Shown here: in pieces, positions 4,295-25,911 of the stretch
Layout: every line of letters starts with the position of its first letter
Numbering within the stretch: position 1 is the stretch's first letter
DNA from: Puniceicoccales bacterium
Lineage (GTDB): Bacteria; Verrucomicrobiota; Verrucomicrobiia; Opitutales; JAIRLG01
Assembly: GCA_031288595.1 (NCBI GenBank)
Contig: JAITRB010000018.1
Span: forward strand, 2,385-34,384
Length of the DNA: 32,000 nucleotides
Reading direction: 5' to 3'
Notes under the pieces: generated by a model
What the model saw: only the letters and a program-made list of their open reading frames with translations
Told to the model about the DNA's origin: nothing
Database searches by the model: none
Translations under genes and position numbers: made by a program

Positions 4295-4392
4295 GCGCTG
4301 TCCTTTGGCTCCCGAAGGGAGCGCCCGCGCAGCGGGCCCCAGCGGAGAAAATCAAAGGGGCCCTTTGATTTTCTCCGCTGCAAAGACAGCGC
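4295..4392 (+). repeat. Cloverleaf (closed four-way junction) intergenic element, copy A
   Basis: Closing stem GCGCTGTC(C)TTTG 4295-4307 pairs with CAAAGACAGCGC 4381-4392. Arm 1 is GCTCCC-GAA-GGGAGC at 4308-4322. Arm 2 is GCCCGC-GCA-GCGGGC at 4323-4337. Arm 3 is a near-perfect 41-nt palindrome, CAGCGGAGAAAATCAAAGGG/CCCTTTGATTTTCTCCGCTG, at 4340-4380. It lies between the divergent glyA and xseA starts. For all copies, strand is assigned by arm order (short, short, long). Confidence 0.85.
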
Positions 4393-4465
4393 CCCAAACA
4401 CACAACACTCTCACTCCTCTCCCTCAGGACTTGTCGAACGGCTGCTATACTTATAACTCTCTTCC

Positions 4466-5842
4466 GTGATTCCATCAGCCAATGACAGTTCCTCCACCTG
4501 GGATACGGAAAAAATCTACAGCATTTCCTTCCTGACAGAGCAAATACAAGGCCTTCTGGACTCCCATATCCCCATGCTCTGGATCGGCGGCGAAGTCTCC
4601 AACTTCCGGCAGCAGAGCTCAGGCCATCTCTACTTCAGCCTCCAGGACGAGCGGAGCCAGATCGCCTGCGTTCTCTTCCGCGGCGATGCCCTGCAGCTCC
4701 GCTTCCCATTGGAAAACGGAAAATCTATTATCTGCTACGGCAGCCTGGAGATCTATGCCCCGCGGGGTCAGTATCAGTGGATTGTACGCCACGTATTACC
4801 CTGCGGTACGGGGCAGCGGGATGCGGAATTCCAAAAACTCAAGGAGCGTTGCCGGAACGAAGGACTCTTCGATGCCGAGCGCAAGCGGCCGATCCCCCTC
4901 ACGGCCTGTCCCATCGCTCTGCTCAGCTCCCCGACCGGTGCCGCACTGCAGGATTTTCTCCAAATCCTGCGCCGGAAGAACTGGCGAGGTGAGATCATCT
5001 TCTTCCCCTGCCGAGTGCAGGGCGATGAATCCGTCCAGGACTTTCTCCATAGTCTCTATCTGGCCCAGCAGTCTCCGGCTGAACTCATCGTCCTGGCCAG
5101 AGGCGGTGGCAGTGCTGAAGATCTTTGGGCCTTCAACTCCGAGGCTATCGTTAGAAAAATAGCTGATTGTTCCAAACCCATCATCTCCGCCATCGGTCAT
5201 GAGACCGATTTCACTTTGGTCGACTTCGTAGCAGACCTGCGTGCCGAAACCCCCTCCGCCGCAGCGGAAATCATCGCGACGAATTATCAAAACGCCCGAC
5301 AGCATTGGCGAGATTTAGAAGAACGGTTGACAGGAATTCTCGAAGAATACAAGCTCCGACAGCGGCAGCACTGGCAGTTTTTGCGACAACGCCTACAGCA
5401 CGTCTCTCCCGAGCGGCTGATCGAGCACCGGCAGCACCAGCTCCAGCAGACCTCCCACCGATTTTTAGAAACCGCCCGCTTTACTCTCGCATCCAAAAGA
5501 GAAGGATTCCTGAGCCTTCAGCGGCGCTGGGAGAGCTATGACATCGGACGTAATCTCCGCAGCGGGTTTTTGATCGCCGAAAATTTTCAGGGAAAAATCC
5601 TCCGCCACCGTCATGATGTCCCTCTGGGCAGTGAGCTGATCCTCCATTTCCAGGATGGCCCGCTGCAAGTTAGCAGCAGTGCCCCCTCGATAAGCTACCT
5701 CTCATCAGGGATAAGTAGTATGGATCAGATTCAAAGTCCTTCTCCCAGTCCTGGTGGTGGGGGAGCGATTCGAACGCTCGAAGGGGAAACCCCGACAGAT
5801 TTACAGTCTGCACCCTTTAGCCTCTTGGATACCCCACCATGA
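4466..5842 (+). CDS. xseA: Exodeoxyribonuclease VII large subunit
   Basis: GTG-start ORF of 458 aa. XseA blocks are SGHLYFSLQD (OB fold), ARGGGSAEDLWAFN and ISAIGHETDFT, followed by a coiled-coil region and the C-terminal GSELILHFQDGPLQV domain. The last ~55 codons are low-complexity, and the final 29 run antisense through tRNA-Tyr. Confidence 0.9.
   Translation: MIPSANDSSSTWDTEKIYSISFLTEQIQGLLDSHIPMLWIGGEVSNFRQQSSGHLYFSLQDERSQIACVLFRGDALQLRFPLENGKSIICYGSLEIYAPRGQYQWIVRHVLPCGTGQRDAEFQKLKERCRNEGLFDAERKRPIPLTACPIALLSSPTGAALQDFLQILRRKNWRGEIIFFPCRVQGDESVQDFLHSLYLAQQSPAELIVLARGGGSAEDLWAFNSEAIVRKIADCSKPIISAIGHETDFTLVDFVADLRAETPSAAAEIIATNYQNARQHWRDLEERLTGILEEYKLRQRQHWQFLRQRLQHVSPERLIEHRQHQLQQTSHRFLETARFTLASKREGFLSLQRRWESYDIGRNLRSGFLIAENFQGKILRHRHDVPLGSELILHFQDGPLQVSSSAPSISYLSSGISSMDQIQSPSPSPGGGGAIRTLEGETPTDLQSAPFSLLDTPP
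5752..5838 (-). tRNA. tRNA-Tyr (anticodon GUA), class II with long variable arm, CCA encoded
   Basis: The reverse complement is GGTGGGGTATCCAAGAGGCTAAAGGGTGCAGACTGTAAATCTGTCGGGGTTTCCCCTTCGAGCGTTCGAATCGCTCCCCCACCACCA. Acceptor is GGTGGGG/CCCCACC. The anticodon loop is CTGTAAA. The T-arm is GAGCG-TTCGAAT-CGCTC. It closely resembles canonical bacterial tRNA-Tyr. Confidence 0.95.
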
Positions 5843-5981
5843 CCGGAATTTTTCTGAAGCTAGAGGCCCGTTGAGGCTTAGCAAGATAATTTTGTTCCAT
5901 GGCCAGCTATGAGCTGCAGATGGGCGACCGAGTATCGTTGGGGAGGAGCGAAATTGCGAGAGGAGCAGGGCGGTGCTTGTG

Positions 5982-6077
5982 TTGCCGGCTTTGGCAGAGG
6001 AAGGCAGGGGCGCTGCCCCTGCCCTCCTCTGTGGCCCGCGTCGCGGGCCTGATTCCGCAGGAATCCAAAGCCGGCAA
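5982..6077 (-). repeat. Cloverleaf intergenic element, copy H
   Basis: Read on the minus strand. Closing stem is TTGCCGGCTTTG/CAAAGCCGGCAA (plus-strand 5982-5993 and 6066-6077). Arm 1 is GATTCC-TGC-GGAATC at 6051-6065. Arm 2 is GGCCCGC-GAC-GCGGGCC at 6033-6049. Arm 3 is CAGAGGAGGGCAGGGGC-AGC-GCCCCTGCCTTCCTCTG at 5995-6031, with one G:T (G:U) pair on this strand (A:C on the other). It lies between alr and tRNA-Tyr. Confidence 0.85.
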
Positions 6078-6341
6078 ACGACAAAAATCCTCCCTATTTT
6101 TCCAATGAAAGAAAGCTCCACGAAACACCCAATTTCCCCATAAAGCCCCAGAAGACCAAAGGGTGTAAACCCCTACTCTTGCTATGGGGAGCTCGTTATC
6201 CCGTAAGTCCCAATATCTACCCCAGGATAACACGATTAAAGCGAGCATATACGAAGGTGTATATTACCCCTCTCCATATGAGGCAGCCTGCGCAATTGTA
6301 GAGATGCCATGGGCAGAAGATAGATACCTCTGGATACGGAA

Positions 6342-7505
6342 TTACCTGACATACACTCGCCGGACTCGGGAAGGAATCGAGCAGAGGCACTCGCGGATGA
6401 TGCGCTGCGACCAGCGGCAGAACTCGTTGAGCGTGATCTCATCCTCTCCGTCACGTCCGATCCAGGTCACGCGGTCGCCCACTCGAATGGGCATTCTGGC
6501 CCCTGTGATATCGAGGAGGGTCTGATCCATCGCCACCCGACCCAGGACTCTGAATCGCTGTCCGTGAATGAGCGCTTCGGCCACATTGGAAGCATGGGTC
6601 GAAATCCCATCGGCATAACCGGCACTTAAAAGCGCGATATGGGTTGGTCGATGGGTCATCGCCATCGCGTCGTAGCCAATCGGGACTCCAGCCGGGAGCA
6701 TTTTAACAAGACTGACCCGGCTATAGAAGCTCAGAACCGGTTCTAGGGAGAGCGAACGGATGAAGGGCAGCTGGCACTCCGGCCCCACGCCGTACTGCAA
6801 TGCGCCGATGCGAACGGCATTGCAGGGAGAATTTTCCCAGGTCCCCGGCAGCGAAAAGCTAGCACTCTCGTGAATCCAAAGTTCCGGAGACAGGGGGCCA
6901 CAAGCCTTCTTATAGCGTTCCAGCCAATGGCCAAAGCGTCGGCGCTGGAGCTCGGTATAGGCCTGATTCGAACAGGCACAGGAAAAATGCGTCGCGATAC
7001 CCGTGATGCGGAGCCAAGGGTCTCTGCCAAAGGCCCTAAGGGCCTCTTCCACCGCATCCCCGTACCAGAACCCGACCCGACCCATGCCTGTATCCACCTT
7101 CAGATGGACGGAAATCGCCTTTCCCCGCTCTTGCGCGTAGAGCCGCAGATGCCGCAGTTCTTCCAAACTCGACATGAAGGGCGTCAGCTGGTATTCGAAT
7201 AAAAATGGAACTTCCTCCGGCAACACCGGGCTCAGAATGAGCACCGGAAGGCTTTTATCCTGCTCGCGAATGCGAATGGCCTCCTGCACATTGGCCACTC
7301 CGAAGGCATCGATGCCAAGCTGCAGCATCCGCGAAACAACAGCCGATAGGCCATGGCCATAGGCATCGGCCTTTACCACTGCGATGTAATGCGCGCAATC
7401 CGGGAGATGCTGACGGATATGCTTAATATTGAGCTCTAGGAGCCCGAGGTCGATTTCAGCCCAGGCCCGAAGGGCGCGCGTATCGGTTGGCGTTGAAAAG
7501 AGCAT
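6342..7505 (-). CDS. alr: Alanine racemase
   Basis: 387-aa ORF with the PLP-lysine motif VVKADAYGHG near the N-terminus. Alr length and C-terminal beta-domain blocks (GYADG, R.PM) fit. Confidence 0.95.
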   Translation of the reverse strand: MLFSTPTDTRALRAWAEIDLGLLELNIKHIRQHLPDCAHYIAVVKADAYGHGLSAVVSRMLQLGIDAFGVANVQEAIRIREQDKSLPVLILSPVLPEEVPFLFEYQLTPFMSSLEELRHLRLYAQERGKAISVHLKVDTGMGRVGFWYGDAVEEALRAFGRDPWLRITGIATHFSCACSNQAYTELQRRRFGHWLERYKKACGPLSPELWIHESASFSLPGTWENSPCNAVRIGALQYGVGPECQLPFIRSLSLEPVLSFYSRVSLVKMLPAGVPIGYDAMAMTHRPTHIALLSAGYADGISTHASNVAEALIHGQRFRVLGRVAMDQTLLDITGARMPIRVGDRVTWIGRDGEDEITLNEFCRWSQRIIRECLCSIPSRVRRVYVR

Positions 7506-7680
7506 GACTGAGGCTCAGCTATCTGGTCGCGTAATAGCGAAAGCGGAAGGAAGGACTGTCAAAAGCAAAAAATGTAAGAGGCAGAGGAAAAGTTTGGAAA
7601 TTTGGAAGCTCCTTATCTCTAGCCCTGTACTCCGCTCGGCCTATCCCCAGCCCAGGGATCCCGGGTTGGGAGGGTGGTGG

Positions 7681-7769
7681 GCTGGCTTTACAAGAGACAA
7701 ATGGCAGAAGGCCATTTGCCTCTTGCCGCCCGCGCAGCGGGCCCGATGCCGAAGGCATCAAAAGCCAGC
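7681..7769 (-). repeat. Cloverleaf intergenic element, copy G
   Basis: Read on the minus strand. Closing stem is GCTGGCTTT/AAAGCCAGC (7681-7689 and 7761-7769). Arm 1 is GATGCC-TTC-GGCATC at 7745-7759. Arm 2 is GCCCGC-TGC-GCGGGC at 7728-7742. Arm 3 is CAAGAGGCAAATGGC-CTTCT-GCCATTTGTCTCTTG at 7691-7725, with one G:T (G:U) pair on this strand (A7697:C7719 mismatch on plus). It lies between tRNA-His and the alr start. Confidence 0.85.
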
Positions 7770-7935
7770 CAGCAGAGAAATTCCCCAATTAGGCTATTGA
7801 GATAAAAGAACAACTGTTCCCAGCGAATACAGCAGGAGAAGCCTTTCTATTTCCCGAAGCGCCGAAAAGGGCAGCGTCAAAATGCTCAACCACAGCAAGT
7901 TCTCCTTGTCCAAAACTAACTCCTCCAGTCCTTAC

Positions 7936-8013
7936 TGGGGTGGCTAACCGGATTCGAACCGGTGACCCTCGGAACCACAATCCGATGCTCTAACCAGCTG
8001 AGCTACAGCCACC
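7936..8013 (-). tRNA. tRNA-His (anticodon GUG) with genome-encoded G-1 and CCA
   Basis: The reverse complement is G-GTGGCTG-TA-GCTC-AGCTGGTTA-GAGC-A-TCGGA-TTGTGGT-TCCGA-GGGTC-ACCGG-TTCGAAT-CCGGT-TAGCCAC-C-CCA. The extra 5' G opposite C73 is the bacterial tRNA-His hallmark. Confidence 0.95.
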
Positions 8014-8088
8014 AACCCCAGTCCAGGCAATCGCTTGCTGGGCTTTTGTCAAGTGAGCTTCCGGAAGCCGCTTCGGCAGGTAAAACGG

Positions 8089-9258
8089 ATGATTTCCCTC
8101 GCCGATGGGAGAACAAGTCCTTTTCTGCCGAGCGTGAGGGTCATTCAGTCATACGTCTTGCGGGAAGGCCTTCTCCACAGCTCGCTTTCGGTTGCCCTCT
8201 TTGCCCTCGTCCTCCTCTCGGGCAACGCCATTCGGGATGTACTCGAACTGCTCGCCGATGGGAAGATCAGCCTTTTTTGCAGCCTGAAATTCCTCTGCAT
8301 TTTAAGCCCTTCTCTCATTTCCTACGCGCTACCCCTGGGCATTCTCACCGGCACCCTATGGACACTGGGTAAAATGGCCTCTCGGAACGAAATCCTTCTG
8401 ATAAAAAGCGCCGGCATCAGCCTCTTCCAAATCCTATCGCCCCTAATTCTCATCGCTCTGGGAGCGATGCTTCTCTCGCTCTTCATCAACTTCGAGTATG
8501 CGCCGAAGTCCATCGCCGGTTACCGGCGCTCGTTGCGAGAAATGGTCCGCGAGGACCCATTGCGCTATTTCCGTCCCGCGACCTTTGTGAGGGAATTCCC
8601 AGGTTATATCCTCTTTGCTCAGCGCCGCCAGGAGTCCTGCCTGGAGGATTTCCATGTCTGGGAGCTCGATTCCCAGGGACGGACGATGGCCACTGCCCAG
8701 GCGGAATCGGCCGAAGTGAGCTACGACCCTAATCAGGACACTTTGCTCTTGAGTCTCCACAGGGGGAGCGCCGAGAAGCGGCCCGATGATGCACCGGAGA
8801 ATATCGTGGAGCGATCGACCCCGACCCTTTTTTTCAAGTGCATGGATCTGCAATTGCCCCTAGGAAATCTCCTGGCCCATTGCGGTCCGGGCCAGGTGAG
8901 GCTCAAACACATGAGTTTGGGCGAGCTTTTACGGGCGAGGCGAGAGGCCATTCAGCGGGGCGATTTCGCGGGGCGTGTGGCGATTCAGCTGCAGATTCAA
9001 AAGCAAATCGTCATGGCCCTCGCCACGCTCTCGATGGTCTTGCTGGGCGCACCCCTCGCCATGAAATCCGCCCATGCTGAGATCTTCATCCATCTCTTCC
9101 TGGCCATTCTATTGGCCATGGGCTTTTATTTCTCGGTCATCGCCATTTCCTGGCTGGAAGATTTCCCGCACTGGCGGCCAGACCTCCTTCTCTGGATTCC
9201 TAACCTCCTCCTGCAAGTCCTCGGCTTCATCCTCTTCAGGAGAACGGCGAGGCATTGA
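8089..9258 (+). CDS. LPS export ABC transporter permease, LptF/LptG (YjgP/YjgQ) family
   Basis: The N-terminal IQSYVLREGL resembles the family's N-terminal (I/L)xRY(I/L)xREF motif. There are three N-terminal TM segments, a soluble middle domain and three C-terminal TM segments. The ORF is open from 8035. I prefer ATG 8089; a GTG near 8131 is also possible. Confidence 0.8.
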   Translation: MISLADGRTSPFLPSVRVIQSYVLREGLLHSSLSVALFALVLLSGNAIRDVLELLADGKISLFCSLKFLCILSPSLISYALPLGILTGTLWTLGKMASRNEILLIKSAGISLFQILSPLILIALGAMLLSLFINFEYAPKSIAGYRRSLREMVREDPLRYFRPATFVREFPGYILFAQRRQESCLEDFHVWELDSQGRTMATAQAESAEVSYDPNQDTLLLSLHRGSAEKRPDDAPENIVERSTPTLFFKCMDLQLPLGNLLAHCGPGQVRLKHMSLGELLRARREAIQRGDFAGRVAIQLQIQKQIVMALATLSMVLLGAPLAMKSAHAEIFIHLFLAILLAMGFYFSVIAISWLEDFPHWRPDLLLWIPNLLLQVLGFILFRRTARH

Positions 9259-9387
9259 GGACTGCGATGAGGAGGAGTGGCAAGGGAAAAGGCAAACCTT
9301 GCCCAATTCCAGCTGAAGGCTTGGGGCGAAGAGAGGGAATTTGGGCGAAAGATCGGGAAAGATCGGTTGTCGGAAGTGGTCATTTTC

Positions 9388-9474
9388 TTCGCTGTCTTTG
9401 GATCCCGAAGGGATCGCTCGCGAAGCGAGCCCCAGGATGAAAAGCTTGCTTTTCATCCTGGCAAAGACAGCGAA
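9388..9474 (+). repeat. Cloverleaf intergenic element, copy J
   Basis: Closing stem is TTCGCTGTCTTTG 9388-9400 with CAAAGACAGCGAA 9462-9474. Arm 1 is GATCCC-GAA-GGGATC at 9401-9415. Arm 2 is GCTCGC-GAA-GCGAGC at 9416-9430. Arm 3 is CCAGGATGAAAAGC-TT-GCTTTTCATCCTGG at 9432-9461. It lies between the convergent lptF/G-like and TPR genes. Confidence 0.85.
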
Positions 9475-9575
9475 CATAGCGAAGGACGCAATCCCCCCAA
9501 CACTAGGAACCAAGCGAAAAATACCTAAAAACTTCCTCTGCCAGAAGGAGAAAAGGAGGGATTTCCCCGAAAACA

Positions 9576-10250
9576 TCACGCCGAGGCTTTCGGAGAGAAG
9601 CCTTGGGCCAGCGCGCCTGGGGATGCTCTCTGCGTCGCCGTCTCCCGGAACGCCGAGGCTTCCGCCGTATGCTGTTTCTCCAGGGTATCGTCGACAGAGG
9701 ATTGCCAGAGCAGGTCACGGGCCTTGACATTTTCAGGATCGTGGCCCAGGACAAAATTGGCCATTTCAACGGCTTCGGAAAAATGCCCACAGCCCAGATA
9801 AGCCTCGCCCAGACGGATGAGGTCCGACAGCTTTCTCCTCTGGCCATCGATGTTTTCGATGCAGAAAATGGCCGTCTGGAAATATTCGAGCTGAATGGCC
9901 AGGCGGCTCATGAGGCGCCATACCGCATCCCCCTTCAGCGATATATCCAAGAGGGAATCCAGCAGAACCAGGCATTCCTTTCTCTTTTCCCTCAGCTGCA
10001 GCGAGAGGAAGGCCAGTTTTATCCAGGTCCCCAAAAATAGCCCCAGCTTCTGGCCCCATGTCTTCCGGATGGCTCCACTCCTTCGCAGGTGCAACAGCAG
10101 CTGCCGTGCTTCCACGTAATCCGGATTGCGCCGTAGAAGTTCCTGGCAGAGAAAAACCGCATAGGAATTATCCCGACCCGATGCGCTCAGATCCTTCGCC
10201 CGTTCGTACAGGGCCTGTTCTTCCCGATTGCTCAATAAAAACTGATCCAT
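9576..10250 (-). CDS. TPR-repeat-like hypothetical protein
   Basis: Helical-repeat segments resemble TPRs: AVFLCQELLRRNPDYVEARQLLL and LGEAYLGCGHFSEAVEMANFVLGHDPENVKARDLL. The ORF is open to 10310. Starting at MDQFLLS (10250) avoids overlap with the glmM 3' end. No specific family was recognised. Confidence 0.5.
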   Translation of the reverse strand: MDQFLLSNREEQALYERAKDLSASGRDNSYAVFLCQELLRRNPDYVEARQLLLHLRRSGAIRKTWGQKLGLFLGTWIKLAFLSLQLREKRKECLVLLDSLLDISLKGDAVWRLMSRLAIQLEYFQTAIFCIENIDGQRRKLSDLIRLGEAYLGCGHFSEAVEMANFVLGHDPENVKARDLLWQSSVDDTLEKQHTAEASAFRETATQRASPGALAQGFSPKASA

Positions 10251-10279
10251 ATACAATCCGCCAGTCCATTCCCCTAAAT

Positions 10280-11635: not shown

Positions 11636-11649
11636 CGTCCCAAAGTATT

Positions 11650-12756: not shown

Positions 12757-12849
12757 GGGAATCGACTAGCAAGAACGCTAGGCAAAGAGAAGCTCCTCTT
12801 CAAGAGGATTCCATCGCCTTCTTCTCCAGTGCTGGAGCCTTAGTTTCAA

Positions 12850-12939
12850 CGCCTTAGGAGCCCGAAGGGCTCCTGTCCGCTCTGCGGACGGCGCTGGGGA
12901 AAAATAAAAAGCTTTTTATTTTTCCCCAGCGCCAAGGCG
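12850..12939 (+). repeat. Cloverleaf intergenic element, copy B
   Basis: Closing stem is CGCCTT 12850-12855 with AAGGCG 12934-12939. Arm 1 is AGGAGCCC-GAA-GGGCTCCT at 12856-12874. Arm 2 is GTCCGC-TCT-GCGGAC at 12875-12889. Arm 3 is GGCGCTGGGGAAAAATAAAAAGC/TTTTTATTTTTCCCCAGCGCC at 12890-12933. It lies between the divergent mraY and MBL-hydrolase starts. Confidence 0.85.
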
Positions 12940-13061
12940 GCGAAGCAAACCGGCCATGCCCCCAATTCCCCTTCACTCGCCGAACAACTCCCACAGGATA
13001 TAAACTTGGATACAGACCGTTTTTCATTGCCCATCTTACCCCATCCCCTTAGGACTAGGGC

Positions 13062-13856: not shown

Positions 13857-13925
13857 GCTCAATCGGCAAGTTTCGTTGGCAAACTGTGCTCGCACTGAAC
13901 CTTGTCGCCGATTGAAGCGTCTGAA

Positions 13926-14022
13926 GGCCGCCTTGAGAGCCCTTCGGGCTCTGGCCTGCTCCGCAGGCTGCGCTTGAGGAAAGCTAAAGGCCTTTTAGCT
14001 TTCCTCAAGCGCCAAGGCGGCC
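13926..14022 (+). repeat. Cloverleaf intergenic element, copy C
   Basis: Closing stem is GGCCGCCTTG 13926-13935 with CAAGGCGGCC 14013-14022. Arm 1 is AGAGCCC-TTC-GGGCTCT at 13936-13952. Arm 2 is GCCTGC-TCC-GCAGGC at 13954-13968. Arm 3 is GCGCTTGAGGAAAGCTAAA-GGCCT-TTTAGCTTTCCTCAAGCGC at 13970-14012. It lies between the MBL hydrolase and dgkA. Confidence 0.85.
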
Positions 14023-14161
14023 CACGGAAACCCTAGTCCCCAAAATTCCCAGTACCTGAACAGTCGTCGATGAACTCCCCCAAAGCCTCCCCACCCTCAT
14101 GAACCCTTTCCGAAGGACAGCCTCGACAAGGATCTAAACCCATCTAAGCTAAGGGATTCCT

Positions 14162-15263: not shown

Positions 15264-15313
15264 ATTTTCCCTCTTCTTTCCCGCCCTTTAAAGTGGATTC
15301 GGCATTCTCTTCA

Positions 15314-15397
15314 CTGGCTTTGTAAGAGGGGAAGGGAAGACTTCCTTCCCCTCTTAAGGCCCGCTTCGCGGGCGATTCCTCCGGAATCCAAAGCCAG
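15314..15397 (-). repeat. Cloverleaf intergenic element, copy E
   Basis: Read on the minus strand. Closing stem is CTGGCTTTG/CAAAGCCAG (15314-15322 and 15389-15397). Arm 1 is GATTCC-GGA-GGAATC. Arm 2 is GCCCGC-GAA-GCGGGC. Arm 3 is TAAGAGGGGAAGGAAG-TC-TTCC(C)TTCCCCTCTTA. It is antisense to both flanking plus-strand genes (the Zn-ribbon gene and hisS). Confidence 0.85.
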
Positions 15398-15514
15398 CGA
15401 AGACCCACCGAGAGCCAATACCGGAGCCTTCTGTTCTCATCGACCCACTCCGAGTTCCTGAACGACAAATGGCGTTGCCATGAGGGGCATTTTCCCTTTG
15501 CAAAAATACGCGTC

Positions 15515-17342: not shown

Positions 17343-17416
17343 TGCCCGATGGTGTAACGGTAGCACAACGGATTCTGGATCCGTTTGTCTAGGTTCGAAT
17401 CCTAGTCGGGCAGCCA
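17343..17416 (+). tRNA. tRNA-Gln (anticodon CUG), CCA encoded
   Basis: TGCCCGA-TG-GTGT-AACGGTA-GCAC-A-ACGGA-TTCTGGA-TCCGT-TTGT-CTAGG-TTCGAAT-CCTAG-TCGGGCA-G-CCA. All four stems pair. Confidence 0.93.
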
Positions 17417-17420
17417 GTTT

Positions 17421-17725: not shown

Positions 17726-17837
17726 GGCGCGATGGCCTCTTTGCAAAGCAAAGGGGTGGCTTCCGCTCCGCAGGAGCGGAAGCCACTCGTGGAGAGGAGG
17801 CGCCAGCCGGCGCCTCCTCTCCACAGGCCATCGCGCC
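17726..17837 (+). repeat. Cloverleaf intergenic element, divergent copy I
   Basis: It has the same topology but different sequence. The 13-bp closing stem is GGCGCGATGGCCT 17726-17738 with AGGCCATCGCGCC 17825-17837. Arm 1 is CTTTGC-AAA-GCAAAG at 17739-17753. Arm 2 is extended to 14 bp, GTGGCTTCCGCTCC-GCA-GGAGCGGAAGCCAC, at 17756-17786. Arm 3 is GTGGAGAGGAGGCGCC-AGCC-GGCGCCTCCTCTCCAC at 17789-17824. Confidence 0.65.
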
Positions 17838-18704: not shown

Positions 18705-18829
18705 TGGGGCATATTTCGCTCATACTGTAGCTAATCCTCGCCAAAGCAAGCCCCCTTCTCTCCCAAGACCCTTGACGAAGGTCCCAGTATGACCAGTATC
18801 TGAAAGAGGATTAGGCAGTTCATGAGAGC

Positions 18830-19204: not shown

Positions 19205-19236
19205 AAATTTCCCCCATTATTTTCGCATATCTTTTT

Positions 19237-19881
19237 ATGAAGATGAATCTCCATTACCGCAGCATTCGCTATTTCTTTTCCATTGCCTTTCGAGAACTTT
19301 GGGGCGGAGAGGTCTATGGGCAGGAAAACATTCCGCCCGCGGGAGCCTGCCTCATCGCCGCCAACCATGCCAGTTTTCTCGATCCGCCCTTCGTCGCCGC
19401 CGTCTGTCCGCAGCGAGAGATCTTCTACTTCGCGCGTCAAACATTATTCAGGCCCGGCTTCTGGCACTTCATCCTCTCGCGGATCAATACGATTCCCGTC
19501 GACCGCGATGGGGACTCCGACTTGAAAGCCATTCGGCGGGTTCTGAAGCTGCTCCGCGAGGATCAGGGTGTGACGATTTTCCCCGAGGGAACCCGTACGC
19601 CGGATGGATATTTCCAGAAGGCTCAGGCCGGTGTCGGTTTTTTGGCCTGTCGGAGTGCCGTTCCGGTCGTTCCCATCCGCCTCTTCGGTACCTACGCCAT
19701 CTGGAATCGCCACCACACCGCCCCCGACTTTCACCGTCGGGCCCAGCTCGTCATCGGCTTACCGATTCTCCCCTCTCTCTACGACCCGGGCCCCACGCAT
19801 CCCCAACGCTATCAGGAAAGCGCCCGACGCATCCTGGGCGCTATCCGACAGCTGTCGCTCCCCCATCTCCGGCGGTGGTGA
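19237..19881 (+). CDS. plsC: 1-acyl-sn-glycerol-3-phosphate acyltransferase
   Basis: The acyltransferase motifs are AANHASFLDP (HX4D) and FPEGTRTPDG. At 214 aa the size is typical for PlsC. Confidence 0.9.
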   Translation: MKMNLHYRSIRYFFSIAFRELWGGEVYGQENIPPAGACLIAANHASFLDPPFVAAVCPQREIFYFARQTLFRPGFWHFILSRINTIPVDRDGDSDLKAIRRVLKLLREDQGVTIFPEGTRTPDGYFQKAQAGVGFLACRSAVPVVPIRLFGTYAIWNRHHTAPDFHRRAQLVIGLPILPSLYDPGPTHPQRYQESARRILGAIRQLSLPHLRRW

Positions 19882-19931
19882 GCCTGGATCGTGAGTCGGT
19901 GCCGAATTCCAGCGATTTCACGGGCCTCTGC

Positions 19932-20024
19932 TTGGCTGGCTTTGCCTACCGGAAAGGCCTTCGGCCTTTCCGGTAGGCGGCCCGCTTCGCGGGCCCGATT
20001 TCTCCGAAATCGAAAGCCAGCCAA
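19932..20024 (-). repeat. Cloverleaf intergenic element, copy F
   Basis: Read on the minus strand. Closing stem is TTGGCTGGCTTT/AAAGCCAGCCAA (19932-19943 and 20013-20024). Arm 1 is CGATTTC-GGA-GAAATCG at 19996-20012. Arm 2 is GGCCCGC-GAA-GCGGGCC at 19979-19995. Arm 3 is CCTACCGGAAAGGCC-GAA-GGCCTTTCCGGTAGG at 19945-19977. It is antisense to the flanking plsC and MFS genes. Confidence 0.85.
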
Positions 20025-20375
20025 CAGAATACCCTCACTTCTCCGGCAATCAAACCGGAGAAAAACTCACCTGAGAAAACCCTCAGGCGTTTTTGCTCCC
20101 TCCATTTGCCGTTGACTCACCGTGGAATGTCCCAAAACCCTTTCCCGTGGAAACCTGTGATGGAGACCTGCGGCCCACGTCATTCCATCGGGAATTTTTC
20201 GAAAAAATCTCTCTGAAATCGAAGTGGATAGGGCCTGCTCTTGGGCTACTGGGGGCTTGTGCTGGCCCGGGCGATGCAGGTCAAGCGGAAGATCGATTCC
20301 GACGGCTATCCTCCCTTGGAGCAAGTTCGGGGATTTCTAAGCCAATTCTCCCACGGAAGACGTCACTTCTTCTCT

Positions 20376-21599
20376 ATGTCAAATTCCGGGACTGAGGAAC
20401 TTTCCCTCTCTGAGCGCTCCCGTCTGACCCTTCGCTACGACACCCTCCGGCAGGCCTTCCAGGGTATTCTAGAGGCCGGTTTCAAAACCTATATCCTGCT
20501 CATCGCCATACGGGTCTTCCACATGGGTGCCTGGGAAAAATCCCTCCTCTCTTCCGCCGGTTTCGCCGGCCTGCTCTGTGCCCCTCTGGTCATGAAAGGG
20601 ATGGCCCGTACCTCCTGGACGAGCATGCAGATCACTGCGCTCTACTTCTTCCTCGTCGCCGCCTGCTTCCTCATCGCTTCCCTAACTCAAGACGCGGGCC
20701 TTTACCTCGTCCTTCTCGTCGCCGCCCGATTCATCTACAAGCAGCAGATCCCCCTCATGATCGACGTCTACAGCCATAACTACGCGGCGGACGAGCGCGG
20801 TTCCAAACTGGGATTTTCCATGTTCTTCCTGGCGACGGTCAGCGTTTTCTTCTCCCTCCTGGCCGGCCAATGGCTCGACCGGCACTTGGACGCCTACCGC
20901 TGGATCCTCGTCCTCATCGCCCTCTCTGCCCTCGGTAGCGCCCTCAGCTTTCTTAAAATTCCCTCCCGAAGGATCCCGAGCAGCTCAGGCCACCGCTGGG
21001 CCAACCTCAGCCTGCTCTGGAAGGACAAGCTCTTCACCGCCATCGTTCTCATCTGGGCCCTGGAGGGCATAGCCAACCAGATGACTATTCCCCTGCGGGT
21101 CGAGTACATCGCCCACGAGCGCTACGGGCTCAATTTCTCCAATCACTGGGTCACCCTTCTGAGCTGCGTCATACCCTCCATCTTTCGCATCCTCGGCTCC
21201 CCGCTGTGGGGCTACCTCTTCGACCGCCTTTCCCTCGTTCAGATGAAGCTGTGGATCAATAGCCTGCTCCTCCTGGGAACCCTGGCCTACTTCTTCTCCT
21301 CGTCCCTGCTCGGCATCCTCATCGGCTCCTGCTTCATCGGCATGGCCCATGGCGGCGGAGTCATCGCCTGGAGCCTCTGGGTCACGAAAATCGTTCCGGA
21401 AGAGTCCTGCTGCGATTACCTCAGCCTCAGCGCAGCGGAATTCGGCTTGCGCAGCTTCATCTCCCCCTTCATCGGCTATGCCCTGCTGGAAGGGACGCAA
21501 TCCTTGCCCTGCGTCGTCGCTATCGCCGTGCTCCTGATTTCCCTATCCTCGCTCGGATTTTGGCTCATCCGCCATCATGAGCGCTTGCGCCCCTCCTAA
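20376..21599 (+). CDS. MFS-type transporter (multi-pass membrane protein)
   Basis: There are about 12 hydrophobic segments in two halves with a central loop, which is the MFS architecture. No substrate-specific motif was recognised. The ORF is open from 20241. I prefer the MSNSG start at 20376 because the preceding 45 codons do not look protein-like. Confidence 0.75.
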   Translation: MSNSGTEELSLSERSRLTLRYDTLRQAFQGILEAGFKTYILLIAIRVFHMGAWEKSLLSSAGFAGLLCAPLVMKGMARTSWTSMQITALYFFLVAACFLIASLTQDAGLYLVLLVAARFIYKQQIPLMIDVYSHNYAADERGSKLGFSMFFLATVSVFFSLLAGQWLDRHLDAYRWILVLIALSALGSALSFLKIPSRRIPSSSGHRWANLSLLWKDKLFTAIVLIWALEGIANQMTIPLRVEYIAHERYGLNFSNHWVTLLSCVIPSIFRILGSPLWGYLFDRLSLVQMKLWINSLLLLGTLAYFFSSSLLGILIGSCFIGMAHGGGVIAWSLWVTKIVPEESCCDYLSLSAAEFGLRSFISPFIGYALLEGTQSLPCVVAIAVLLISLSSLGFWLIRHHERLRPS

Positions 21600-21638
21600 A
21601 ATCTCTCCAGAATCGGGTCTAGATATCCTGGGGATTTT

Positions 21639-24125
21639 ATGAAAATCGACCTGAAATGGTTGAAACGCCACGTGGACATTCCGGTTTCCGCCGCGGAGCT
21701 GCTTGAGATTTTCCCGAAGCTCGGGATGGAGGTGGAGGCGAGCCACATCCGCGGCATGGAGTTCCAGCCCACCCTGGTCGTGGGCGAAATCATCGACATT
21801 GCGGCCCATCCCCAAGCCGATCGCCTGCAGGTCTGTCAGGTCAGGGTCGACGAAGGAAAGCCAAGGACCATCGTCTGTGGGGCGAAGAATTTCAAACGGG
21901 GAGACCGCGTGCCAGTCGCCCTGCCCGGTACCCTCCTGCCGGAAGGCTTCAAGATCGAGGCCCGCGAACTTCGCGGCATCCGCTCGGAAGGCATGATGTG
22001 CAGCGCTCGAGAACTGGGTATTTCCGATGAGCACGAAGGGCTTCTCATCTTGTCGGGGAATCCCAGCATTGGGACAGCCATCCAAGAGCTCTTCTCTTTG
22101 GAAGAGGCCGGTTTTGAAATCGAGACGACGGCGAATCGCGGCGAGCTCCTGAGCCACCTGGGAGTGGCCCGAGACTTGGCCGCGTTTTTTAGAAAGCCGC
22201 TGCGGGAAGAGGCCTTTCCGATCCCCATAGCTCCCTACCCCTCGGCATTGGCGGGTGGCCTTAAGCAAGAACTCATCCTTCAATCGGAAGAAGCGCCCTA
22301 CTACTGCCTCTTCGAAATCCGCGATCTTCGGGTGTGCGAAAGTCCGGACTGGCTTCAGCAGGACCTGAAGGCCATCGGCCTCAGGCCGATCAATAACGTC
22401 GTCGACCTCACGAACTGGATCCTCTTCGACTCCGGCCAGCCACTCCACGCCTTCGATGCCGATGTAGTGTGGGGCAATAGCCTCTATGTCCGGCCGTCTT
22501 GGGAGGGAGAGACTATCCAGACCCTCGACGGACAGCAACGCTCGCTCGAGAAAGGGGTACTCGTCATCGCCGATGAGGACTCTGCTCTGTCCATTGCCGG
22601 CATCATGGGCGGAACATCCTCAGCCATCCGGCCAGATACCTGCCACATTTTCCTCGAAAGTGCCTACTTTCGTCCTGCCAGCATCCGGCGTAGCAGCAAA
22701 TGGCTCGGCCTGCGCAGCGACAGTTCCTACCGCTTCGAGCGCGACATCGACCCGGGCCGGACACTCGCAGCTGGCCAATGGGCCGCGCGGATGATCCTGC
22801 AGGTTTGCGGCGGAACGCTGGTGGGCTGCCGCGTTTCGGGTCGGCCTCCACGGGAGAGGCGGGTCATCGAACTCACGCCTTCATGGGTGGCGGAGCGCTG
22901 TGGCTGCCCCATTGCTCTCGAGAGCGTGGCTGAAAATTTAAAAGCGCTCGGCTATGGGGTCGATCAGGCCCAGCTGCCCTGGAAGGTGGAAGTGCCCAGC
23001 TGTCGCGCCGATGTGCAGCGCCCCATCGACCTAGTCGAGGAATTTTTGAGAATCTACGGCAATGAAAGGATTCCCCTCTCAGCACCTTCAACCCCCGTCT
23101 ACCATCGGGAAGACACAGCGGCGGCCATCTATTTCCGCGAAGTGGCCGATTATCTCTGCCACCGCGGTGCCGTCGAGGCTTGCCACTCCTCCTTCCGCTC
23201 CGAAGCGGAAGCAGGCTTTGGGGAGAAAAATTTCCAAATGCTCCGAATCGAAAATCCCAGTGTGGAGAATCAAAGCCACCTGCGCCTCAGCCTCATTCCC
23301 GGACTGCTGGATACGCTGTCCTACAACCTGCAGAGCGGCCATGAAGTCCCGGAGCTCTTCGAGAACGGACATGTCTTCATCCCTCACGAGGGAAAATTAT
23401 GGGAAGTCTACTCGACGGCCTATATTCAAGCACTCGGTTTCCAGCGGCGGCACTGGGAGAAGCTCCCAGCTCCTGGGCTGATGAGACTCAAGGCTATGGC
23501 TCTATCGATGGCCTCCATCGCCCAGATCTCGGAAGAGATTCTCCTGGGAAAAGGAGCAGAGCCGAGCGGCTTGTGGCAGGAGGAGAACAGCTGGCACTGC
23601 GGAAACCTCCTGGAGAAGCACTACCGTATTCAGCTCGGCATCCTCAACCCGGCTGGCTGTTCCCGGGAATTGCCCTATCCCGTCGCCGCTGTGGAGATCT
23701 GCCTCCTGCCACAGCACTTTGAGAAGACAAGTCGCGTCGAGCCGCGCTTCCGCCCCTTCAGCCTCTATCCCAGAGCTTCGCGGGACTTGGCCCTCATGCT
23801 GGACCGCTCCCTGCCGGCCGAAACCGTGCGCCGGGAGGTTTTGCGGCTGGCCAGGCGCGCGGCTGGGCGGCACTTCGAGGTCCAAGAGGTGGAGATATTC
23901 GATATCCACGAAGGAGAAAATCTCCCTGCGGGGAAGAAAAGCCTCGCGCTAGCCATCGATTTCTATTCCGAGCAGCGCACGCTCCGAGAATCGGAGGTGC
24001 AACACGCCTTCGAGCTGCTCCAACGCTTCATCCTTCGGGAAACTCCCTACGAAATTCGCTGCGATAGGGAACACGAAAGCTCCCTGCAGATGAAAGCGAT
24101 CCCTCATGAAGATGGAGGGAGATAG
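21639..24125 (+). CDS. pheT: Phenylalanine--tRNA ligase beta subunit
   Basis: 828 aa. It begins MKIDLKWLKRHVDI. The N-terminal tRNA-binding OB domain is GEIIDIAAHPQADRLQVCQV...VCGAKNF. B3/4, B5 and the C-terminal FDX-ACB-like domain follow in the canonical order. Confidence 0.97.
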   Translation: MKIDLKWLKRHVDIPVSAAELLEIFPKLGMEVEASHIRGMEFQPTLVVGEIIDIAAHPQADRLQVCQVRVDEGKPRTIVCGAKNFKRGDRVPVALPGTLLPEGFKIEARELRGIRSEGMMCSARELGISDEHEGLLILSGNPSIGTAIQELFSLEEAGFEIETTANRGELLSHLGVARDLAAFFRKPLREEAFPIPIAPYPSALAGGLKQELILQSEEAPYYCLFEIRDLRVCESPDWLQQDLKAIGLRPINNVVDLTNWILFDSGQPLHAFDADVVWGNSLYVRPSWEGETIQTLDGQQRSLEKGVLVIADEDSALSIAGIMGGTSSAIRPDTCHIFLESAYFRPASIRRSSKWLGLRSDSSYRFERDIDPGRTLAAGQWAARMILQVCGGTLVGCRVSGRPPRERRVIELTPSWVAERCGCPIALESVAENLKALGYGVDQAQLPWKVEVPSCRADVQRPIDLVEEFLRIYGNERIPLSAPSTPVYHREDTAAAIYFREVADYLCHRGAVEACHSSFRSEAEAGFGEKNFQMLRIENPSVENQSHLRLSLIPGLLDTLSYNLQSGHEVPELFENGHVFIPHEGKLWEVYSTAYIQALGFQRRHWEKLPAPGLMRLKAMALSMASIAQISEEILLGKGAEPSGLWQEENSWHCGNLLEKHYRIQLGILNPAGCSRELPYPVAAVEICLLPQHFEKTSRVEPRFRPFSLYPRASRDLALMLDRSLPAETVRREVLRLARRAAGRHFEVQEVEIFDIHEGENLPAGKKSLALAIDFYSEQRTLRESEVQHAFELLQRFILRETPYEIRCDREHESSLQMKAIPHEDGGR

Positions 24126-25404
24126 CATGGGGGCGATGGAGGAGCACTCCTGTCAACGGACGGCCTGGTTCGTATGGTTGGCTGCCGTCACCTTTTACGG
24201 CTATGAGTTCTTCGTGCGCGTCGCCCCGGGCAGCATGTTCCAGGAGATGCAGCGGAGCTACGGGGTCACGGCGGGGCTTTTCGGGTTCGCTTCTGGTACC
24301 TACTACTATATCTATGCCCCTATCCAAATCATCGCCGGTGCATTTTTCGACCGCTTCGGCGGGAGAAAGGTACTCCTGCCGGCCAGCCTCTGCGTGGCGC
24401 TCGGCTGCGCCTGCGTCCTGCTACCCCTACCCTCTCTGGGCCTCTTTGCCCTGGGGAGATTGCTCATGGGCCTGGGTTCCGGCTTTGGCTTCATCGGGGT
24501 CATGTATCTGGCCACCGTATGCTTTTCCAAGAGAAAGCTGTCCCTCATCTCCGGCCTGACCACCGCTATAGGATTCCTGGGCGCCATTCTGACCCTGCAG
24601 TACATCCCCCGGCTCGTCGAACGCATCGGCTGGCAGTCCTGTTGGTTCGGCGCCAGCATTTTCGGCCTGCTGTCGGCTGCCCTTCTGGGTATCGCCATCC
24701 CTCGCTCGCCTCGCCCCAAAACTGAGCAGCAGGACTCCCATTTCCAAGAAGAAGGGCCTTCTTTTCTCACGGGGCTCTGGCAGGTGCTGAAAAACCCCCA
24801 GACCTGGGTCATCGGTGGCATCGCCGGCGTGCTCTACGCCACACCGACTGTCTTCGGCGACCTGTGGGGGAATGCTTATTTTCGGAACGTAGCCCAGGCA
24901 TCCAACGAAAGTGCCGGCCAGAGCGTGGCCATGCTCTACCTCGGCTGGTTTCTCGGGGCCCCGTTCTTCGGCTGGCTCTCGGACAGAACGCGGAAGAAAA
25001 AGATACTTCTCCAGGTCGCGACTCTGCTCTGCGGCCTGCTGCTGTGTCTCTTCCTCTATGGCGATGCTTCCCTAAATACCCTGCGGATTTGGCTCCTGCT
25101 CATCGGCTTTTTCGGAACGCCCGAGGTCGCCTGCTTCACGGCCTCCATCGAAAACAATCCGAGCCATGCCAGTGGCAGTGCGGTAGCGGTGGTCAATATG
25201 ATCGTAATGCTCCTAGGGGGACTCACCCAGCCCCTTGTGGGATGGATCGTCGAGATCCTGTCCTCCTCCGGCATCGGGCAGAACACCGGGACGGCCGGCA
25301 TCCACGAGCTCCGCCTCGCCCTCGGTCTCCTGCCCCTTCTCAGTTTCCTCGGATTCATCCTGTGCTTTTTCTACGACGAGAAGACCGAGGAGCAGCATCC
25401 GTAG
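24106..25404 (+). CDS. MFS transporter
   Basis: It has 12 predicted TM segments and an MFS signature-like loop GAFFDRFGGRKVLL (canonical pattern G-x3-D-R-x-G-R-R). The ORF opens at 24106 and overlaps pheT by 20 nt. Starts at 24127 or 24136, just after the pheT stop, are equally plausible. Confidence 0.8.
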   Translation: MKMEGDSMGAMEEHSCQRTAWFVWLAAVTFYGYEFFVRVAPGSMFQEMQRSYGVTAGLFGFASGTYYYIYAPIQIIAGAFFDRFGGRKVLLPASLCVALGCACVLLPLPSLGLFALGRLLMGLGSGFGFIGVMYLATVCFSKRKLSLISGLTTAIGFLGAILTLQYIPRLVERIGWQSCWFGASIFGLLSAALLGIAIPRSPRPKTEQQDSHFQEEGPSFLTGLWQVLKNPQTWVIGGIAGVLYATPTVFGDLWGNAYFRNVAQASNESAGQSVAMLYLGWFLGAPFFGWLSDRTRKKKILLQVATLLCGLLLCLFLYGDASLNTLRIWLLLIGFFGTPEVACFTASIENNPSHASGSAVAVVNMIVMLLGGLTQPLVGWIVEILSSSGIGQNTGTAGIHELRLALGLLPLLSFLGFILCFFYDEKTEEQHP

Positions 25405-25465
25405 GAAGCTTTCGATTGCCAGATGGAGAATGAGCCCTATCCTCCTCTCTGAGAACTAAGGGAAG

Positions 25466-25807
25466 ATGGGAACAGTTCGAAATTCCAAGCTCTTCGCGGC
25501 GCTTCTGGCCAGCCTCCTCTGTCTACCCAGTCTCGAAGGAACAGCCCGCCCATACCGATCCTCACCACCGCCCCCTGCGTCGAGCAACGACTTTTTTCGA
25601 AAATACTCCTGCCGCTACACCCCTTTCGACCCTTCCACGGCCCGACCGGCTCCGGCTCGATTCCGCAACAACACGGCCACTGCTCATCCCCTTCCCCCGG
25701 CCAATTCGAAGCCCTTGAAGCTGCAGCGGATCAACCCTTCCTCCTCACGGCCCTCCCAGAGGCCCGGCCAACCCGTCCCTAGCTTGTCCGCCGGAATGGC
25801 CCCCTAG
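25466..25807 (+). CDS. Hypothetical small secreted Pro/Ser-rich protein
   Basis: The N-terminal signal-like segment is MGTVRNSKLFAALLASLLCLPSLEG. The remainder is low-complexity and proline-rich. No family was recognised, and its coding status is uncertain. Confidence 0.35.
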   Translation: MGTVRNSKLFAALLASLLCLPSLEGTARPYRSSPPPPASSNDFFRKYSCRYTPFDPSTARPAPARFRNNTATAHPLPPANSKPLKLQRINPSSSRPSQRPGQPVPSLSAGMAP

Positions 25808-25815
25808 GCCTTCTG

Positions 25816-25911
25816 CCGCTGTCTTTGGATTCCGCAGGAATCCGCCCGCTACGCGGGCCGCAAGGGGCGAAAAAGAAAAGAATTTTTTTTCGCCCCTTGC
25901 AAAGACAGCGG
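25816..25911 (+). repeat. Cloverleaf intergenic element, copy D
   Basis: Closing stem is CCGCTGTCTTTG 25816-25827 with CAAAGACAGCGG 25900-25911. Arm 1 is GATTCC-GCA-GGAATC at 25828-25842. Arm 2 is GCCCGC-TAC-GCGGGC at 25844-25858. Arm 3 is GCAAGGGGCGAAAAA-loop-TTTTTCGCCCCTTGC at 25860-25900. It lies upstream of mutL. Confidence 0.85.

Follow-up and report, generated by a model that had tools for sequence, protein, structure and literature searches.

Small palindromic repeats such as repetitive extragenic palindromic (REP) sequences, the inverted REP doublets known as REPINs, Rickettsia palindromic elements (RPEs) and Correia repeats are among the least understood parts of bacterial genomes, and whether selection acts on their fold, and at which level, is a long-standing question. 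REP and REPIN sequences lack target-site duplications and are thought to act or move as folded single-stranded DNA (PMC3116915, PMC3337134). Here we analyze ten elements lying between positions 4295 and 25911 of a 32,000-nt stretch (hereafter, the window) of contig DNA from a Puniceicoccales bacterium, each of which folds into a closing stem surrounding three hairpins. Our analyses show that these elements and their relatives are mobile repeats without coding capacity, and comparison of orthologous copies supports selection on their fold. We give a probability of about 0.6 to the reading that they are small non-coding mobile palindromes whose fold matters at the DNA level, whose structure is kept by selection and which are restricted to one bacterial clade.

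The elements share with REP sequences, bacterial interspersed mosaic elements (BIMEs) and REPINs a high copy number, an extragenic location, a palindromic and non-coding nature, the occurrence in both orientations and in subfamilies, a long vertical persistence and a comparable density. However, a REP is one imperfect hairpin of ~20-40 nt with, in the well-studied families, a conserved 5' tetranucleotide (e.g. GTAG), and a REPIN consists of two inverted REPs that form one long hairpin, whereas here a closing stem and three near-perfect hairpins make up 84-140 nt. We found no conserved target motif or flanking tetranucleotide among 59 copies, apart from one subfamily with a conserved 5' flank, and a low-power search retrieved no REP-associated tyrosine transposase (RAYT) among the open reading frames of the ~250 kb of clade DNA analyzed (the window plus related loci). 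The host phylum, Verrucomicrobiota, also differs, and blastn detected no similarity to E. coli genomes and plasmids. RPEs provide another parallel, since they are palindromic mobile repeats of ~100-150 bp in a host-associated bacterium that insert in frame in essential genes and leave these undestroyed, with 44 insertions within the genes of R. conorii (PMC10969869). Such insertions are reported to be much commoner in RPEs than here, where we count three (one in mutL and two in pheT) and nearly all copies are intergenic; in addition, the hosts are unrelated and the review of RPEs (PMC10969869) does not mention a four-helix junction for them. The likeness to RPEs is a functional analogy only.

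MITEs, or miniature inverted-repeat transposable elements (Correia/NEMIS, ERIC, BOX, RUP, QMITE), are, like our elements, shorter than 300 bp, non-coding, bounded by terminal inverted repeats and mostly intergenic, and MITE transcripts fold stably. By contrast, MITEs have target-site duplications and descend from insertion sequences (IS), while we see neither a duplication nor a parent IS, and their interior is not made of perfect hairpins and their copies decay, whereas here the hairpins are near-perfect and pairing is kept at orthologous loci. Small mobile elements defined by their fold also exist in organelles, namely the mitochondrial double-hairpin elements of Allomyces and the GC-cluster or palindromic elements of fungal and algal organelles. 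These likewise favor a multi-hairpin fold over sequence and occur both between and within genes, but they reside in the DNA of organelles, lack a closing stem around their two hairpins and form different sequence families; we know of no enzyme for the Allomyces double-hairpin or organelle GC-cluster elements. Finally, attC sites and the ends of IS200/IS605 elements are single-stranded DNA hairpin substrates recognized by structure more than by sequence. Nevertheless, attC consists of one imperfect hairpin bearing extrahelical bases and occurs in tandem cassette arrays next to an integrase gene (intI), whereas our elements have four helices and lie amid housekeeping genes of a window that contains neither integrase nor cassette array, and IS200/IS605 ends flank tnpA or tnpB, a context absent from the window. 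The elements work most like REP/REPIN sequences and RPEs, with MITE-like terminal inverted repeats, although defining features of each group were not seen here. Literature searches for repeats that form four-way junctions, or for any repeat of the Puniceicoccales, retrieved no earlier account; as far as could be found, four features described below are new, namely the closed architecture of four helices, the fact that four unrelated families share it, the GNA/TNC loop rule and the constraint measured at orthologous sites.

With RNA parameters, each of the ten intervals folded into one long and two short hairpins (the short ones with stems of 6-8 bp and loops of 3 nt) within a closing stem, and z relative to shuffled sequences ranged from -8.6 to -14.1. 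DNA parameters yielded the same four-helix fold on both strands of all ten, with essentially equal energies (z = -7.4 to -15.4; 0 of 200 shuffles equally stable). Likewise, a topology descriptor that admitted Watson-Crick pairs only and required three hairpins of at least 6 bp within a closing stem of at least 7 bp matched 56 elements in the 250 kb and not a single one in shuffled sequence. A preliminary description of the window had claimed this structure for all ten intervals, and both folding and descriptor bear it out. The arm variants that it listed (GATTCC, GATTTC, GATGCC, GATCCC, GCTCCC and GAGCCC for arm 1; GCCCGC, GTCCGC, GCCTGC and GCTCGC for arm 2) are all present with exact complements, but several had been ascribed to the wrong copy: GTCCGC belongs to the copy at 12850, GCCTGC to that at 13926, GCTCGC to that at 9388, and the 14-bp arm 2 to that at 17726. 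Its view of a ten-copy family conserved in structure and not in sequence was too strong. A structural alignment and covariance model (R1) matches nine copies, which share a consensus, at 70-95 bits, and those nine do form one family (family 1), while the copy at 17726-17837 belongs to a different family with the same topology. Nor is one element per intergenic region a rule, as relatives can carry two in the same region. The coordinates of these and other features are listed in Table 1.

Table 1. Four-helix elements of the window, representatives of the other families, and associated sequence motifs. R1, covariance-model score; L numbers designate related loci.
Feature	Position	Strand	Context or defining feature	Support
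Element A, family 1	window 4295..4392	+	between divergent starts of glyA (-) and xseA (+)	R1 83.6 bits
Element B, family 1	window 5982..6077	-	between convergent 3' ends of xseA and alr	R1 70.5 bits
Element C, family 1	window 7679..7771	-	between tRNA gene (-) and alr (-)	R1 70.9 bits
Element D, family 1	window 9386..9476	+	between convergent lptF/G-like and TPR genes	R1 77.1 bits
Element E, family 1, GAGCCC subfamily	window 12846..12943	+	between divergent mraY-like and MBL-fold starts	R1 80.2 bits
Element F, family 1, GAGCCC subfamily	window 13925..14023	+	between co-directional genes	R1 79.2 bits
Element G, family 1	window 15308..15403	-	antisense to two flanking + genes, upstream of hisS	R1 83.4 bits
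Element H, family 2	window 17726..17837		same topology, other sequence family	R1 no match; fold z -14 to -15
Element I, family 1	window 19932..20024	-	antisense to flanking + genes	R1 78.7 bits
Element J, family 1	window 25815..25912	+	upstream of mutL	R1 95.1 bits (best score)
Family 2	window H; L017 149-254; L018 2186-2284; L030 ~955-1060 (in frame, pheT)		closing stem GCGAYGGCC	
Family 3	L021 6060-6152; L024 4709-4787		closing stem GGGCCCCGGGAC	
Family 4	L003 3509-3594; L012 5483-5564		closing stem CCGGCGAYCC	
GCCGCCTTTGAGCCC subfamily flank	L022 3760-3795, 7850-7885; L023 6745-6777; L007; L020; L032 2035-2062		conserved 5' flank	
G-quadruplex-type motif	L005 388-453; L011 3710-3727; L017 4760-4775; L019 3037-3053; L024 2680-2709, 6876-6903; L027 2761-2776, 2902-2918		adjacent to or within element loops (10 of 11 sites)	

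Copies of these elements measure 84-140 nt and comprise four helices. The closing stem is a perfect inverted repeat of 10-20 bp at the element ends, which in family 1 reads NNN-GCYGKCTTTG / CAAAGMCRGC-NNN; all six combinations observed at its Y/K positions are exactly compensated, and its outer 3-8 bp are variable yet complementary. Arm 1 (GAKYCC-NNN-GGRMTC) exists in at least nine fully complementary variants and arm 2 (GCCCGC-NNN-GCGGGC) in four. Element A, for instance, combines the arms CTCCC-GAA-GGGAG and GCCCGC-GCA-GCGGGC with a perfect 20-bp arm 3, element I carries GATTTC/GAAATC as arm 1, and element F GCCTGC/GCAGGC as arm 2. Arm 3 is a near-perfect stem of 12-23 bp, hypervariable and essentially specific to a locus or subfamily, with a GC-rich base and an AT-rich tip (34% versus 54% AT, p = 2e-4). 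In the 59 family-1 copies its 5' arm is rich in A and G, with just 7% T (e.g. window 12890-12933). We discarded this purine richness as an orientation signal because a perfect palindrome shows it equally on both strands. The same composition yields AnTn-type centers, such as GGGGAAAAATAAAAAG-CTTTTTATTTTTCCCC, which could ease cruciform nucleation or bend DNA.

The loops of the two short arms follow a rule of their own. In about 75% of these triloops the sequence is GNA or its complement TNC, invariably with a C-G closing pair, and most others are AAA or TTT. They switch between reverse-complement forms (GAA/TTC, GCA/TGC, GGA/TCC, AAA/TTT), and the loop class flips between copies irrespective of element orientation; within the window, 10 GNA and 7 TNC loops on the + strand reveal no link with strand. 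Sequences of the d(C-GNA-G) type, specifically d(GCGAAGC), form exceptionally stable DNA minihairpins, and d(GCGAAGC) is found literally in arm 2. Stable RNA hairpins prefer tetraloops, typically GNRA or UNCG.

Three further families, unrelated in sequence, display the same topology, which makes four families in all. Family 2 has CYTTTGC-AAA-GCAAAGG as arm 1 and GGC..GCTCC-GCA-GGAGC..GCC as arm 2; its window member, element H, has the closing stem GGCGCGATGGCC, the arm 1 CTTTGC-AAA-GCAAAG, an arm 2 of 14 bp and an arm 3 of 15 bp. The L021 copy of family 3 has an arm 2 that exceeds that of L024 by a perfect 16-nt palindrome, AGTGGCTTAAGCCACT, inserted in the loop. We also considered whether individual arms circulate as solo mini-hairpins. 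Perfect hairpins of 6 bp with 3-nt loops number 195 inside the elements and 128 outside, but the latter are mostly unrelated in sequence and few match arm motifs (truncated, other-family or solo copies), and the idea was rejected.

Covariation in family 1 is extensive. In 61 aligned copies, 96.2% of the cells are paired and 28 of the 35 pairs have changed on both sides (388 cells); none of 500 shuffles reached any of the covariation measures, and sliding the partner columns by 1-3 positions lowered pairing to 40-48%. Because this set was chosen with a pairing-dependent descriptor, a circularity that counts against our interpretation, we gathered the copies anew by sequence alone, with an nhmmer profile built from the 5' half (91 hits). 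This control, which offsets the problem in part, gave 528 of 546 and 522 of 546 Watson-Crick cells in arms 1 and 2, respectively.

Covariation by itself is nonetheless no proof of a structured RNA. Many elements are retained at orthologous sites across genomes with 70-85% nucleotide identity. Thus, element A corresponds to L001 1794-1887 (where the surrounding genes are ~70% identical), D to L010 150-235 and L002 3566-3653, F to L010 5225-5328 (with at least four compensated pair changes between the two), G to L010 6929-7020, and J to copies in L014, L030 and L032. Ten ortholog pairs together contain 401 stem pairs. Of these, 363 were unchanged, 15 had changed on both sides and were still Watson-Crick, 13 were broken on one side, 4 had become G-U, 6 had changed on both sides without staying Watson-Crick and 4 fell in alignment gaps. 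In the same ten pairs, 42 of 113 unpaired positions had changed. Full alignments of five orthologous intergenic regions provided a rate contrast: identity is 92.5% in stems (differences at 30 of 400 positions, of which one element accounts for 22), 67% in loops (differences at 19 of 58) and 72% in the intergenic sequence outside the elements (differences at 232 of 816; 62% when gaps are counted). Three of the five elements show only 0-2 stem changes while their flanks differ at ~25-35% of aligned positions. Since this conservation includes the locus-specific arm 3, it cannot be explained by gene conversion between paralogs, and stems evolving more slowly than flanks require purifying selection. 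Selection on the fold, already proposed in the preliminary description, is thus supported by covariation, by the sequence-only collection and by stem conservation at orthologous loci.

Selection is not the only process visible in the stems. Between the copies of the mutL insertion found in L014 and L030, whose flanks are 96% identical, one 18-bp stem exhibits two compensated double changes and one uncompensated change, when independent mutation would be expected to produce roughly 0.01 compensated pairs (18 x 0.04^2 x 0.5); a concerted mutational process acting on pairing is therefore visible besides selection. Template switching is known to yield compensated changes, loop inversions and stem extensions (PMC8794818). 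One could then imagine neutral, self-perpetuating palindromes in which template switching and hairpin-templated repair keep arms complementary without any selection on the fold. This mechanism, documented in that study, would account for two compensated changes in one stem of nearly identical copies within a coding insertion that needs no fold, for loops flipping to their reverse complements, for the palindromic lengthening of the L021 arm and for the tandem duplications that adjoin insertions. Unbiased copying of one arm onto the other would not, however, slow substitution, whereas stems change far less than loops and flanks, including the three elements that are almost unchanged amid diverged flanks, and the sequence class of the loops is constrained as well. 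Stem rates well below neutral refute this process as the sole cause, and we consider a purely neutral explanation very unlikely. Conversely, in view of the loop inversions, arm lengthening, tandem duplications and mutL changes, compensated changes alone do not prove selection; the rate contrast does.

The preliminary description had left open whether the elements are structured RNAs or a class of single-stranded DNA elements, and our data favor the second alternative and disfavor the first, owing to the scarcity of G-U pairs and the lack of orientation bias. In 85 copies we counted 3551 Watson-Crick pairs and only 69 G-U pairs on the canonical strand (1.9%), against 47 on the opposite one (1.3%), where each corresponds to an A-C mismatch on the canonical strand. 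Selected RNA stems usually tolerate G-U far better than A-C. Relative to co-directional neighboring genes, 13 copies have the same orientation and 10 the opposite one, and divergent starts flank 9 copies and convergent ends another 7. Elements A and E stand only ~75-120 nt from the start codons of both divergent neighbors and may for this reason not be transcribed at all, though E is conserved. Watson-Crick purity, independence from orientation and GNA/TNC loops together favor a DNA-level fold over a strand-specific RNA. We propose, with a moderate degree of confidence, that it is in DNA, and on both strands, that pairing matters, as single-stranded hairpins or as a cruciform.

Selection could instead act on the fold of a cis-acting RNA serving as an operon-boundary terminator, as a barrier to 3' exonucleases or as a small-RNA-like module. 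Of the ten window copies, eight are located downstream of the 3' end of one or more genes, the stems are under purifying constraint with compensated changes, the sense strand has a slight G-U excess (20 versus 11), and the window shows no enrichment of canonical intrinsic terminators, which may mean that another signal is needed; transcripts of REP sequences and other MITEs do stabilize or terminate mRNAs (PMC10969869). Yet G-U pairs make up less than 2% and are nearly equal on both strands, orientation shows no preference relative to transcription, copies occur between divergent starts (A and E) and in frame within genes, and the loops are not the tetraloops typical of RNA. No U-tract follows the hairpins (there is no T-tail after family-1 arms, a weak one being present after one arm of H alone). 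In the Rfam search, only the two genuine tRNAs of the window (7939-8012 and 17343-17413) reached the gathering threshold, as the preliminary description had anticipated in recognizing no Rfam-type motif, and the E-value mode added merely weak microRNA-like hairpin matches far under threshold. We regard an RNA-level function as unlikely. The simple intrinsic-terminator interpretation was rejected outright, with 19 terminator-like sites in the window versus 19.0 expected. One of these few terminator-like sites is a 9-bp hairpin with T-rich tails on both strands at 20068-20089, 44 nt downstream of element I, which resembles a bidirectional terminator.

Subfamilies, nesting and in-frame insertions show that the elements are inserted mobile DNA. 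Subfamilies hold near-identical copies: an identical arm 3 is found in L021, L008 and twice in L023, and a subfamily of Ct408_bin121 has ~10 copies that also have a ~25-nt 5' flank in common. Nesting is exemplified by the ortholog of element E in L010 (3803-4015), which houses a family-1 element (3853-3941) exactly inside its arm-1 triloop. As for genes, a 120-nt insertion in mutL of L014 (1183-1302, in bin38) and of its close relative L030 (5468-5588) is absent from the window mutL; it is made up of a 99-nt element and a tandem duplication of 21 nt and is in frame, with the downstream Pfam domains shifted by exactly 40 residues and intact. The pheT gene has been invaded twice, in L032 (~2030-2190) by a family-1 element that adds about 54 amino acids and in L030 (~900-1085) by a family-2 element that adds about 62, both in frame, with the Pfam domains of this essential gene intact, and the latter with its target duplicated as a long tandem ('LRIEN' segment); as with mutL, the window gene is uninterrupted. 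The target in the window mutL, CCAGG-TGCT-CTGG, is itself, as read from its sequence, a small hairpin loop, and hairpin loops appear to be insertion targets. The preliminary description had held that the pattern does not fit recent copies of a MITE or an IS, a statement not supported in view of the near-identical paralogs, the presence/absence differences, the nesting and the three gene insertions; the pattern fits a long-lived MITE-like element.

Neither target-site duplications nor direct repeats flank the 59 copies, and none is clear at the two best-resolved insertions. The pheT site of L032 is too divergent at the DNA level for boundaries to be drawn, the pheT-MFS spacer of L030 offers no clean empty site, and an automated comparison of loci for empty sites turned up no cases beyond those described above. 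One subfamily, defined by GCCGCCTTTGAGCCC, possesses a conserved segment of ~25 nt, CACCGTCTCC-N8-10-CGGCGGGTTT, on its 5' side only and outside the closing stem. This flank travels with the element, even into pheT of L032, and may be a recognition or cleavage region. We also noticed a G-quadruplex-type motif, GGGG(T/C)GGG(T/C)GGG(C/T)GGGG, present 11 times in the bin38 loci and absent from the window; ten of the 11 directly adjoin four-helix elements or sit in their loops, and it may be a second tiny mobile motif with the same target sites.

We propose that each element is a compound palindrome whose ends would pair as a closing stem, equivalent to terminal inverted repeats, around three internal hairpins. 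The relevant fold would be a DNA fold, taking the form of hairpins when one or the other strand is transiently single-stranded, or of an extruded cruciform. Insertion would aim at single-stranded or hairpin-loop DNA, leaving no target-site duplication, and would be carried out in trans by a structure-recognizing enzyme, the nearest precedents being RAYT or IS200/IS605-type HUH transposases. Perfect pairing would be maintained by purifying selection against unpaired stems, probably helped by template switching during replication, which would copy one arm onto the other, flip loops and lengthen stems. If the host benefits at all, it might be because the elements offer a topological or architectural site in its DNA, a role that has been put forward for REP/BIME sequences.

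Several observations weigh against this model. In the absence of a cleavage motif or target-site duplication, the chemistry of transposition is unconstrained. The best phmmer match to the E. coli RayT in the open reading frames of the 250 kb had an E-value of 1.7, in a search of low power, and neither the window nor the annotated loci of these incomplete genomes revealed a transposase. The GC skew of the window suggests a single replichore, and lagging-strand insertion of the IS200/IS605 type would predict a biased orientation; despite this, five family-1 elements lie on the + strand and four on the - strand. The weak sense-strand excess of G-U pairs mentioned above is also unfavorable, and strand-symmetric RNA roles, for instance as a bidirectional roadblock or as a shield against 3' exonucleases, are possible. 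Finally, a purely selfish model is insufficient, as conserved stems at fixed loci point to a cost for the host when pairing is lost; such a cost would imply some DNA-structural role.

This last point could be taken further by viewing the elements as DNA sites recruited by the host, bound by HU/IHF-like, gyrase or junction-binding proteins, their mobility being only historical; a variant would be a single-strand priming signal of three hairpins similar to the complementary-strand origin of phage G4. REP/BIME elements bind gyrase, IHF and Pol I. Orthologous retention with conserved stems, strand-symmetric and exclusively Watson-Crick pairing, an arm 3 whose GC-rich base and AT-rich tip would ease extrusion, and the presence of one copy in nearly every gap between transcription units of the window would all suit such sites. 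Against this, no protein partner has been identified, a syntenic relative does without any element in 10 kb (see below), so that they are dispensable, and near-identical paralogs and coding insertions indicate recent spread. We therefore judge host recruitment as the main explanation quite unlikely.

Alternatively, although we advance it only tentatively, the elements might represent mobile DNA defined by its topology, in which a pre-folded single-stranded four-way junction mimicking a Holliday junction is the substrate. At least four sequence-unrelated families with one topology suggest that the folded junction itself is what the enzyme recognizes. Candidates for that junction-recognizing enzyme would include tyrosine recombinases, resolvase-like proteins and a new kind of HUH protein, and the host may then have put the junctions to structural use where one transcription unit meets the next.

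So far, this class of elements has been found only in one termite-gut clade of Puniceicoccales (Verrucomicrobiota). Scanning the arm 1 plus arm 2 pattern against 185,579 GTDB species, with one genome per species, matched 29 loci, all in three Puniceicoccales metagenome-assembled genomes (MAGs), Pcl387_bin38, Pcl387_bin136 and Ct408_bin121; the 'Pcl387' bins originate in lower-termite guts. The flanking genes of the window genome are ~81-88% identical to those of bin38 and ~70% to those of bin136. Three additional syntenic contigs, L030, L031 and L032, were reached through relatives of the window MutL (100% identical to MDR3143857.1) with 73%, 59% and 56% identity, outside which MutL identity drops from 56% to 39%. 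In total, five related Puniceicoccales MAGs carry about 90 copies beyond those of the window. Scans of JGI metagenome contigs with the family-1 and family-2 patterns, and a scan of IMG/VR, gave no matches. Searches by descriptor, covariance model and nhmmer concur in finding ~85-95 family-1 copies in the DNA analyzed (~85 distinct copies in 211 kb, plus additional ones in L030 and L032), that is, about one copy per 2.5-3 kb and 4% of bases, a density to be read knowing that loci were chosen for containing a match. They are dispersed, occur in either orientation and occupy all types of intergenic context. The exception is L031 (10,173 bp), whose MutL is 59% identical to that of the window, which preserves the order pheT-MFS-mutL-HD-lpxI and has no four-helix element of any family, showing that the elements are dispensable and that their presence varies within the clade.

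All these sequences come from MAGs, and a binning or assembly artefact, or a chance cluster of hairpins, might be invoked. Nevertheless, independent assemblies, samples and projects (JAITKE, JAITIW, JAIRRP, JGI 3300042590 and JGI 3300042596) share the same families, at orthologous positions and with ordinary divergence, and shuffled DNA gives none, which makes this explanation extremely improbable.

With roughly 90 copies in 250 kb, four unrelated families and a single topology, this clade offers an unusually clean system, in which orthologous copies span 4-30% divergence. Locus-specific arms, stem conservation above background and insertions in loops and in frame make it informative, and they render testable the contributions of selection and template-switch repair, the level of folding (DNA or RNA) and the identity of the structure-specific mobilizing enzyme.

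The window itself has a GC content of ~57% and a housekeeping gene content: mnmA-like, glyA, xseA, alr, lptF/G, a phosphohexomutase of the PGM/PMM family, mraY-like, dgkA, hisS, sfsA, pheT, two MFS genes, mutL, a 7TM-HD gene and lpxI. Within the 3' end of xseA, a segment on the - strand (5755-5839) resembles tRNA-Sec in Rfam at 34.5 bits, below the gathering threshold of 47, probably by chance. The - strand segments 1998-2441 and 2170-2856 are adjacent paralogs ~640 bp apart and 72-75% identical, the repeat at 2028-2160 matching that at 2667-2800. They look like a local tandem gene duplication, and the open reading frame at 2170-2856 carries a type IV pilin-like methylation motif at its N-terminus and matches DUF1559 weakly.

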